A model generated the notes under the pieces. It saw nothing but the letters and a program-made list of their open reading frames with translations. It made no database searches and had not been told where the DNA came from. This document shows positions 15,538 to 48,000 of a stretch of DNA of 64,000 nt, in pieces. The first letter of the stretch is position 1, and every line of letters starts with the position of its first letter. The stretch lies in assembly GCF_003334335.1 (NCBI RefSeq), contig NZ_QOWQ01000012.1, one strand, 5' to 3'. Source of the DNA: Escherichia coli (lineage in GTDB: Bacteria > Pseudomonadota > Gammaproteobacteria > Enterobacterales > Enterobacteriaceae). A program made the translations under genes and the position numbers.

Positions 15538-15837
15538 CTGGCACGCGATGGGTTGCAATTAGCCGGGGCAGCAGTGATAATGCGCCTGCGCGTTGGTTCT
15601 CAACGCTCTCAATGGGGGCTCTGTTGGTTCTCCCGCAACGCTACTCTGTTTACCAGGTCAGGTCCGGAAGGAAGCAGCCAAGGCAGATGACGCGTGTGCC
15701 GGGATGTAGCTGGCAGGGCCCCCACCCATTTCTGCCTCCCACCGTTTCGTCAAAAAATCCCAACATGGCTAAACTTTAACCACAACTGACGTCGCAAGAA
15801 TTGTCTGGCTGCGCAGTACGCTTCGGAGGTATGTCTG

Positions 15838-45768: not shown

Positions 45769-46263
<495 letters not shown>

Positions 46264-46369
46264 TTAAACAAAAAAACGAAGCAAGCATACGCCTGATGGC
46301 GGTCCAAAAAAAAGAGTCATCTTGCCTAAGAGTATTGGCAGGATGGTGAGATTGAGCGACAATCGAGTT

Positions 46370-46453
46370 ACACCGTCGCTTAAAGTGACGGCATAATAAT
46401 AAAAAAATGAAATTCCTCTTTGACGGGCCAATAGCGATATTGGCCATTTTTTT
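46370..46453 (+). ncRNA. chiX: Hfq-dependent small RNA ChiX (MicM/SroB/RybC)
   Basis: ybaK-ybaP intergenic; acaccgtcgcttaaagtgacggcataataataaaaaaatgaaattcctctttgacgggccaatagcgatattggccattttttt matches the ChiX sequence as I recall it, ending in hairpin ggccaatagcgatattggcc plus T7. Confidence 0.75.
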
Positions 46454-47246
46454 AGCGCAACATTTGCGGCAAATTCCCTTCTCCATACAGGTGTAGTGCA
46501 CCGACCGCGACCACATATCGCCCCGGCGGCATGGCGCGTAATTTATCCCGCCAGGCGAGATTTCGCTGATGCATCAGCACATCGTACAGCGACTGACTGA
46601 ACGTATTGGGCAGCGTTATATCATTATTTTGCGGCGGTGCATTCAGCCACCAGCTCATCATTTGTTGCAGCAACCGTGCGTTGGTATGCCAGTGGGTCAG
46701 CGTATCGTCCAGCAGCGCCAGTCCTTTGTCAGGGAGCTGGAGCAACATGGCAATCTGGTTTTCAGCCCCTTCCAGTTCAATCACGGGTTTATGTTGTTGC
46801 TTCGCCGCCTGCAATAGCTGGTAATCGATACCGTATTCTGCCCGCAGCCCCAGTTTTTGTGCCTGCGTCGCCTGAAGAACCATCGCGATTTGCCACAGCG
46901 GTTGGGTAGAAAAGAGTGAGGGAGAAATGCCCATCTCCTGGCTAATGTGCTGCAGGTTTTGGAGTTGCTCCTCGCTAATGCGCTCTTCCAGCGCCTCGCA
47001 GGCAGGCAAATTAGCAAAAGGCGTATCGCTGGTGGAAACATCCGCCTCGACGATCAGCGCATCGGCGTTTTTGAGCTTTTTGAGCAAACGGGTGGGCAGG
47101 GGAGCCATATCGTGGCTACCCATATGAATACTGCCAATCAGATGAAAATGGCGATTGCCGGGGAGGGTGATATCGATGGCAGGCCAGGTGTAATGATTAC
47201 CGCGCAGCGCGGCCCAAAGCGTTTTTACCCGGTACAACAGATCCAT
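46452..47246 (-). CDS. ybaP: TraB/GumN-family protein YbaP
   Basis: 264 aa; MDLLYRVKTLWAALRGNHYTWPAIDITLPGNRHFHLIGSIHMGSHDMAPLPT... Confidence 0.85.
   Translation of the reverse strand: MDLLYRVKTLWAALRGNHYTWPAIDITLPGNRHFHLIGSIHMGSHDMAPLPTRLLKKLKNADALIVEADVSTSDTPFANLPACEALEERISEEQLQNLQHISQEMGISPSLFSTQPLWQIAMVLQATQAQKLGLRAEYGIDYQLLQAAKQQHKPVIELEGAENQIAMLLQLPDKGLALLDDTLTHWHTNARLLQQMMSWWLNAPPQNNDITLPNTFSQSLYDVLMHQRNLAWRDKLRAMPPGRYVVAVGALHLYGEGNLPQMLR

Positions 47247-47746: not shown

Positions 47747-48000
<254 letters not shown>

Follow-up and report, generated by a model that had tools for sequence, protein, structure and literature searches.

The 84 nucleotides at 46370-46453 on the plus strand are, with near certainty, the chiX gene, in which a sigma-70 promoter would give rise to an 84-nt RNA with its 3' end at an intrinsic terminator; that this RNA depends on Hfq, represses chiP and decays upon decoy pairing is taken from the literature. 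The gene lies in the window, i.e. the whole stretch of 64,000 nucleotides of Escherichia coli DNA that was analysed. ChiX is an already known and intensively studied small RNA, and there is nothing new in the RNA itself. A preliminary description had proposed at this position a plus-strand unit of about 84 nt with an intrinsic terminator between two minus-strand genes, had recognised it as ChiX, a regulator of chitoporin and chitobiose mRNAs, and had noted an overlap of its 3' end with the stop codon region of ybaP. This picture was corroborated throughout, and the locus comprises the following features.

46335 to 46340, plus strand: putative -35 hexamer TTGGCA of the chiX promoter (consensus scan; conservation in orthologues)
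46358 to 46363, plus strand: putative -10 hexamer GACAAT, ending 6 nt before the transcript start (consensus scan)
46370 to 46453, plus strand: ChiX (SroB/MicM/RybC) small RNA, 84 nt (RF00368, identity to b4585, Term-seq 3' end)
46373 to 46391, plus strand: predicted 5' stem-loop (nt 4-22) of 8 pairs with the loop UAA (minimum free energy and centroid fold; orthologue hairpins; lead probing)
46393 to 46409, plus strand: single-stranded A-rich linker AUAAUAAUAAAAAAAUG, the Hfq distal-face site (sequence, count of ARN triplets, published footprint)
46406 to 46428, plus strand: extended pairing region (nt 37-59), complementary to the chbB-chbC intergenic decoy (duplex energy against shuffles)
46414 to 46425, plus strand: seed UCCUCUUUGACG (nt 45-56), complement of the chiP Shine-Dalgarno region (12-nt exact complement; conservation)
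46426 to 46453, plus strand: Rho-independent terminator, a stem-loop at 46426-46445 followed by A and U7 (46447-46453), the U-tail being the Hfq proximal-face site (scan, covariation, Term-seq, Hfq-III footprint)
46452 to 46454, minus strand: TAA stop codon of ybaP, sharing 2 nt with the 3' end of ChiX (open reading frame, K-12 record)

The identity of the RNA was established by family search and by comparison with the reference strain. When the whole window was searched with Rfam 15 at gathering thresholds, RF00368 (sroB, equivalent to ChiX/MicM/RybC) matched at exactly 46370-46453 on the plus strand; its score of 82.1 bits (E = 1.8e-10) is far above the gathering score of 44, and every model position (1-83 of 83) is covered. 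The sequence, ACACCGTCGCTTAAAGTGACGGCATAATAATAAAAAAATGAAATTCCTCTTTGACGGGCCAATAGCGATATTGGCCATTTTTTT, is identical to chiX (b4585) of K-12 MG1655 at 84 of 84 nucleotides, and in the region around the gene 4001 of 4001 nucleotides are the same. In the MG1655 record, the ncRNA chiX (b4585, 'small regulatory RNA ChiX') is annotated at 507204-507287 on the plus strand with ybaK and ybaP on either side. SroB, RybC, MicM and ChiX are names of the same RNA, and its position between ybaK and ybaP is given in the literature (PMC3384567, PMC4098024, PMC5006887). The feature thus described agrees with ChiX in sequence, length, strand, neighbours, promoter, terminator, seed and complementarity to both chiP and chbBC, and the analysis found no evidence against the identity.

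The gene sits inside a 203-nt spacer between two open reading frames of the minus strand, ybaK (45769-46248) and ybaP (46452-47246), which are the two neighbours named before. This arrangement is the same in K-12, in which ybaP (507286-508080) and chiX likewise overlap by 2 nt. Differences from K-12 ChiX were found neither in the RNA nor within about 1.7 kb of it in the 64 kb compared. The complete window shares 99.975% identity with NC_000913.3:460835-524834; a raw position-by-position comparison gave 1223 mismatches, which come down to 15 substitutions and a single 1-nt indel at about 62.4 kb. Because of these 15 substitutions and the indel, the source of the window is not MG1655 itself; it is a very close relative. 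The indel is located near the start of rhsD.

Within the species, a search of 5426 complete E. coli genomes found the ybaK-chiX-ybaP spacer, queried as window positions 46249-46460, in 5423 of them with an identity of at least 95%. The spacer was absent from the other three, and two of the matches lay on records labelled as plasmids. A view restricted to coding sequences would leave an empty 203-nt spacer where chiX is located. This had been anticipated, and the 10 top-ranked E. coli genomes annotated by PGAP indeed show ybaP alone at the locus.

Upstream of the RNA, a consensus scan detected a sigma-70-like motif, TTGGCA-17-GACAAT, at 46335-46363 on the plus strand. A -10 element had been expected about 7 nt before 46370, and GACAAT at 46358-46363 ends 6 nt before this position, so that both a family match and promoter elements are present. 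The promoter match taken alone is at chance level, as one site was found and 0.8 were expected in shuffles of the 450-nt region; it therefore gains weight only from where it lies and from being conserved in other genera. This motif-level evidence is consistent with a sigma-70 promoter of its own that would start transcription at nt 1 of ChiX.

At the other end, the terminator stem at 46426-46445 (nt 57-76 of ChiX) is GC-rich, with 8 pairs, of which 4 are G-C, and a loop of 4, and is followed by ATTTTTTT with the U7 tail at nt 78-84. In MG1655, Term-seq placed the dominant plus-strand 3' end at 507287, which corresponds to window position 46453, in all three growth conditions; this end was covered by 445,279 to 955,394 reads in the three conditions and was labelled chiX / antisense ybaP (PMC7815308 supplementary file 1). 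A discrete ChiX of about 84 nt and its repression of chiP in vivo were documented by northern blots, Term-seq and chiP-lacZ fusions, all in MG1655 (PMC7815308; bioRxiv 10.1101/2021.08.13.456236).

The predicted fold comprises a hairpin near the 5' end (nt 4-22), an unpaired linker and the hairpin of the terminator; its energy is -24.1 kcal/mol, compared with -12.9 +/- 2.9 kcal/mol for dinucleotide shuffles (z = -3.9). Lead probing found nt 17-22 protected (PMC5006887). In the linker, four consecutive A-R-N triplets occupy nt 26-37 (46395-46406), and together with the U7 tail this (ARN)4 stretch provides, as judged from the sequence, the motifs for Class II Hfq binding. Such binding of ChiX via an A-rich distal-face site and the U-tail was described before (PMC5006887; bioRxiv 10.1101/2021.08.13.456236). 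Hfq footprints on ChiX were mapped to nt 24-33 (Hfq-I, A-rich, distal face), to nt 48-52 and to the poly(U) tail (Hfq-III, proximal face) (PMC5006887). These published Hfq and structure sites coincide with the computed hairpin (nt 4-22), ARN stretch (nt 26-37), seed (nt 45-56), terminator (nt 57-76) and U7 tail (nt 78-84). When over-expressed, ChiX is able to titrate Hfq (PMC5006887).

Pairing with the known targets was computed with the single-stranded segment of ChiX (nt 23-60) against the chiP and chb regions of K-12. The longest exact complement to K-12 chiP (ybfM) was formed by nt 45-56 with CGUCAAAGAGGA, i.e. 12 Watson-Crick pairs located 8-19 nt upstream of the chiP AUG, and because of this location the site covers the chiP Shine-Dalgarno region. 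The duplex has an energy of -21.0 kcal/mol, which was reached by 23 of 2000 shuffled targets and is, taken alone, just moderately unusual. With the chbB-chbC spacer, nt 37-59 form 12 and 7 base pairs around a 2-nt internal loop, giving -28.5 kcal/mol, an energy that none of 2000 shuffled targets reached (z = -6.0). This duplex is longer and stronger than that with chiP and therefore fits the published decoy model. Both complementarities agree with the earlier assignment of ChiX as a regulator of chitoporin and chitobiose mRNAs. Whole-molecule RNAduplex runs of ChiX against the chiP leader and chbBC ignored intramolecular structure, returned long and physically meaningless duplexes and were discarded.

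The mechanism of ChiX, with its Class II dependence on Hfq, the repression of chiP and the relief of this repression by the chb and ChiZ sponges, is well established in published work, and the elements found here fit into it as follows. Identity, boundaries, promoter and terminator motifs, fold, both complementarities and conservation across genera were computed here, whereas Hfq dependence, chiP repression, decoy-induced decay and constitutive expression come from the literature. The sigma-70 promoter (TTGGCA-17-GACAAT) would drive synthesis of the 84-nt RNA up to the intrinsic terminator, and the product would consist of a 5' stem-loop, an unstructured A-rich (ARN) linker, a C/U-rich seed and a terminator hairpin with the U7 tail. 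The seed (nt 45-56) would pair with the Shine-Dalgarno region of the chiP mRNA and thereby keep the chitoporin from being translated; in the literature, this pairing also promotes Rho-dependent termination within chiPQ. Once chitosugars induce the chb operon, the longer site in the chbB-chbC spacer would pair with ChiX, lead to its decay and thereby free chiP; ChiZ, a fragment of the chiP 5'-UTR, would act as a second sponge. In published work, ChiX needs no specific inducer for its synthesis and represses chiP continuously; when chitobiose induces the chb operon, the resulting transcript titrates ChiX, which then decays rapidly, and ChiP is de-repressed (PMC4098024). Rho-dependent termination in chiP is raised by ChiX pairing, and ChiZ was reported as the second sponge (PMC7815308).

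ChiX has relatives in function among other small RNAs of E. coli. Like ChiX, the Class II Hfq-binding RNAs MgrR and CyaR combine an A-rich/ARN distal-face site with a terminator U-tail for the proximal face (bioRxiv 10.1101/2021.08.13.456236). However, their sequences are unrelated to that of ChiX, and they have other targets and other inducing signals, whereas ChiX is expressed without a specific inducer (bioRxiv 10.1101/2021.08.13.456236) and is controlled mainly via decay. The sponge pairs GcvB/SroC and RybB/3'ETS-leuZ resemble the system in that a pairing transcript which mimics a target sets the activity of the small RNA (PMC4474525; PMC7815308). Unlike in these pairs, the decoys of ChiX come from its own regulon, namely the chbBC spacer and ChiZ from the chiP 5' UTR.

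Conservation was assessed in a single pass over 298 Gb of representative genomes with the 15-mer AAATTCCTCTTTGAC, which returned at least 120 loci, mostly chance matches in unrelated phyla. True homologues among the 15-mer matches listed were picked by nhmmer and Rfam, and the resulting sample of species is incidental and not exhaustive. It contains 14 complete orthologues, from E. albertii, two Citrobacter, two Enterobacter, Superficieibacter, Pluralibacter, Cedecea, Enterobacter sp. Ag1, Yersinia, two Rahnella, Serratia and Pantoea, and all counts over 15 species refer to E. coli plus these 14 orthologues from the listed matches. The gathering score of RF00368 was passed by every one of them (14/14, 49.9-89.5 bits). 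Wherever the sequence reaches, ybaK and ybaP flank ChiX on the opposite strand; both were seen in 13 of the 14 loci, and the Cedecea locus, 1.1 kb long, reaches ybaP only.

In the MAFFT alignment, the seed block AAATTCCTCTTTGAC is invariant in all 15 species and the linker AUAAUAAU is nearly so. The terminator stem is paired in 98.2% of cells over 14 distinct sequences, compared with 13-44% in slid controls, and double changes from A-U to G-C occur at two pairs. MAFFT lost the register of the 5' hairpin across genera; hence each orthologue was folded separately and no column-wise covariation count was made. A hairpin was predicted at the same place in 15 of 15, with almost no sequence common across genera, so the structure of this element is, by prediction, conserved and its sequence is not. 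Fold z-scores were weak in three of the 15 orthologues (E. albertii -1.6, Pluralibacter -0.8, Yersinia -0.6). The promoter elements were followed in the same set. TTGGCA-17/18-GACAAT is kept in eight species, and TTGGCA or a near-variant at a spacing of 17-18 nt is conserved across 10 Enterobacteriaceae (E. coli, E. albertii, two Citrobacter, two Enterobacter, Superficieibacter, Pluralibacter, Cedecea and Enterobacter Ag1), in which GACAAT is invariant. In Yersinia, Serratia, Rahnella and Pantoea, a simple promoter scan did not find a consistently placed promoter.

The same 15-mer also retrieved target sites. Among the matches listed, chiP leaders were hit in antisense in Enterobacter sp. Ag1, Yersinia artesiana, Serratia silvae, Cedecea neteri and Edwardsiella ictaluri (L040:1653, L042:1828, L070:3035, L105:2898 and L119:8190 in the list of loci). 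In these five genera, GTCAAAGAGGAATTT lies 19-21 nt upstream of the chiP start, and the encoded products are 68-84% identical to K-12 ChiP. The perfect ChiX complement at chiP amounts to 15 nt in the five genera compared with 12 nt in E. coli. Thus, with five chiP leaders carrying the seed complement, the seed of the small RNA and its target site are co-conserved across families of the Enterobacterales. A ChiX gene of Edwardsiella was not among the matches listed.

Two other readings of the locus were weighed against chiX. The hairpin with its T-run stands directly at the end of ybaP and could be taken for merely the terminator of ybaP or ybaK, so that the 84 nt would form no independent RNA. 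However, the T-run follows the stem on the plus strand only, and the scan found no minus-strand terminator at this place; ybaK and ybaP are both minus-strand genes and unable to supply a plus-strand transcript. A positioned and conserved promoter lies upstream, the full-length Rfam match takes in the 5' hairpin and the seed as well, and the Term-seq 3' end is on the plus strand (PMC7815308). Strand and promoter geometry refute this reading, and its probability is negligible.

The RNA also contains an ATG at 46407 (MKFLFDGPIAILAIF...) whose frame is open to the 3' end, and it might be supposed that the transcript codes for a small protein. The same open frame speaks against it, as no in-frame stop precedes the terminator and the message would be non-stop; moreover, the sequence upstream of the ATG, AAUAAUAAAAAAA, holds no Shine-Dalgarno element. 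Yersinia and Serratia deviate by 1-2 nt in the register between ATG and seed, and Pantoea has no ATG, whereas the nucleotides of the seed are invariant, and conservation therefore acts at the RNA level and not at the codon level. Without a Shine-Dalgarno element, an in-frame stop or a kept ATG register, the small-protein reading was rejected and deserves next to no credence.

The overlap with ybaP described earlier was found as stated, with the TAA at 46452-46454 on the minus strand sharing 2 nt with the RNA. An overlap of 1-2 nt between the ybaP stop and the ChiX U-tail (46447-46453) is present in 12 of the 15 Enterobacterales species of the incidental sample (orthologous loci of the survey: L017, L048, L023, L043, L113, L030, L064, L104, L041, L069 and L046). 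In these 12, the stop is made up of the final U or final two U of the tail together with the base that follows, and this holds even for YbaP proteins whose C-terminus is extended by two codons. No overlap occurs in Pantoea (gap of 1 nt), Yersinia (7 nt) and Rahnella inusitata (138 nt). As the ybaP stop lies in the ChiX tail, any 3' UTR of ybaP would be perfectly antisense to ChiX.

The surroundings of this junction offer two further observations. On the minus strand, a terminator-like hairpin with a T-run is located at 46295-46282, 34 nt upstream of the ybaK start codon and beyond the whole of chiX; it could end ybaP transcripts past chiX, or it may have arisen by chance, with 0.4 such sites expected from shuffles. 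On the plus strand, mapping with BCM/Rho placed a Rho termination region at K-12 507468, i.e. at window position 46634 in ybaP antisense (PMC7815308 supplementary file 2), which is 181 nt past the ChiX terminator and suggests that some chiX transcription reads through, antisense into ybaP.

These observations bear on the question of whether ChiX and ybaP are coupled in cis, such that convergent transcription or a duplex of the ybaP 3'-UTR with ChiX modulates ybaP or titrates ChiX. In favour of such a coupling, the overlap is kept in 12 of 15 species despite the varying C-terminal length of YbaP, the next terminator-like site of the minus strand (46295 to 46282) is reached only after all of chiX has been crossed, and the Rho termination region at 46634 points to transcripts that run past the end of ChiX and are antisense to ybaP (PMC7815308 supplementary file 2). 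In addition, reads labelled 'ybaP.EST3UTR' were taken as ChiX in one RIL-seq study (PMC10954441). However, tight packing inherited from a common ancestor accounts for the conservation without any function, and Yersinia, Pantoea and Rahnella inusitata manage without the overlap. Moreover, the Term-seq list contains no minus-strand primary 3' end of ybaP (PMC7815308), and no experiment or study tying ybaP to ChiX was found in the literature. On balance, a coupling of this kind is considered unlikely.

Other RNA elements were recorded in the window. Rfam returned three matches to naRNA4 (RF02564), which are REP-type palindromic elements, at 47751-47828, 47852-47929 and 40613-40690; two of them score on both strands. 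Two of the matches lie in a tandem duplicate of 137 nt (47747-47883 and 47848-47984, 97.8% identical) between ybaQ and copA, and Term-seq had reported 'orphan' plus-strand 3' ends at K-12 508673 and 508771 inside this ybaQ-copA array (PMC7815308). The DnaX programmed -1 frameshift element (RF00382, 96.8 bits) was matched at 32522-32586 on the plus strand inside dnaX, in agreement with the tau/gamma annotation of K-12, and ffs, the gene of the 4.5S / SRP RNA (RF00169, 68.1 bits), at 15622-15718 on the plus strand, the K-12 annotation mapping to window positions 15614-15727. The frameshift element and ffs are both known.

ChiX is a textbook Hfq-dependent small RNA, and the importance of its recognition in this chromosome is that of a correct annotation only. 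The conserved overlap between ChiX and the stop codon of ybaP is a minor curiosity and the sole mildly unexplored point of the locus. It might, with quite low probability, reflect a cis-antisense coupling, in which ybaP transcripts would serve as a further sponge of ChiX or convergent chiX transcription would limit ybaP.
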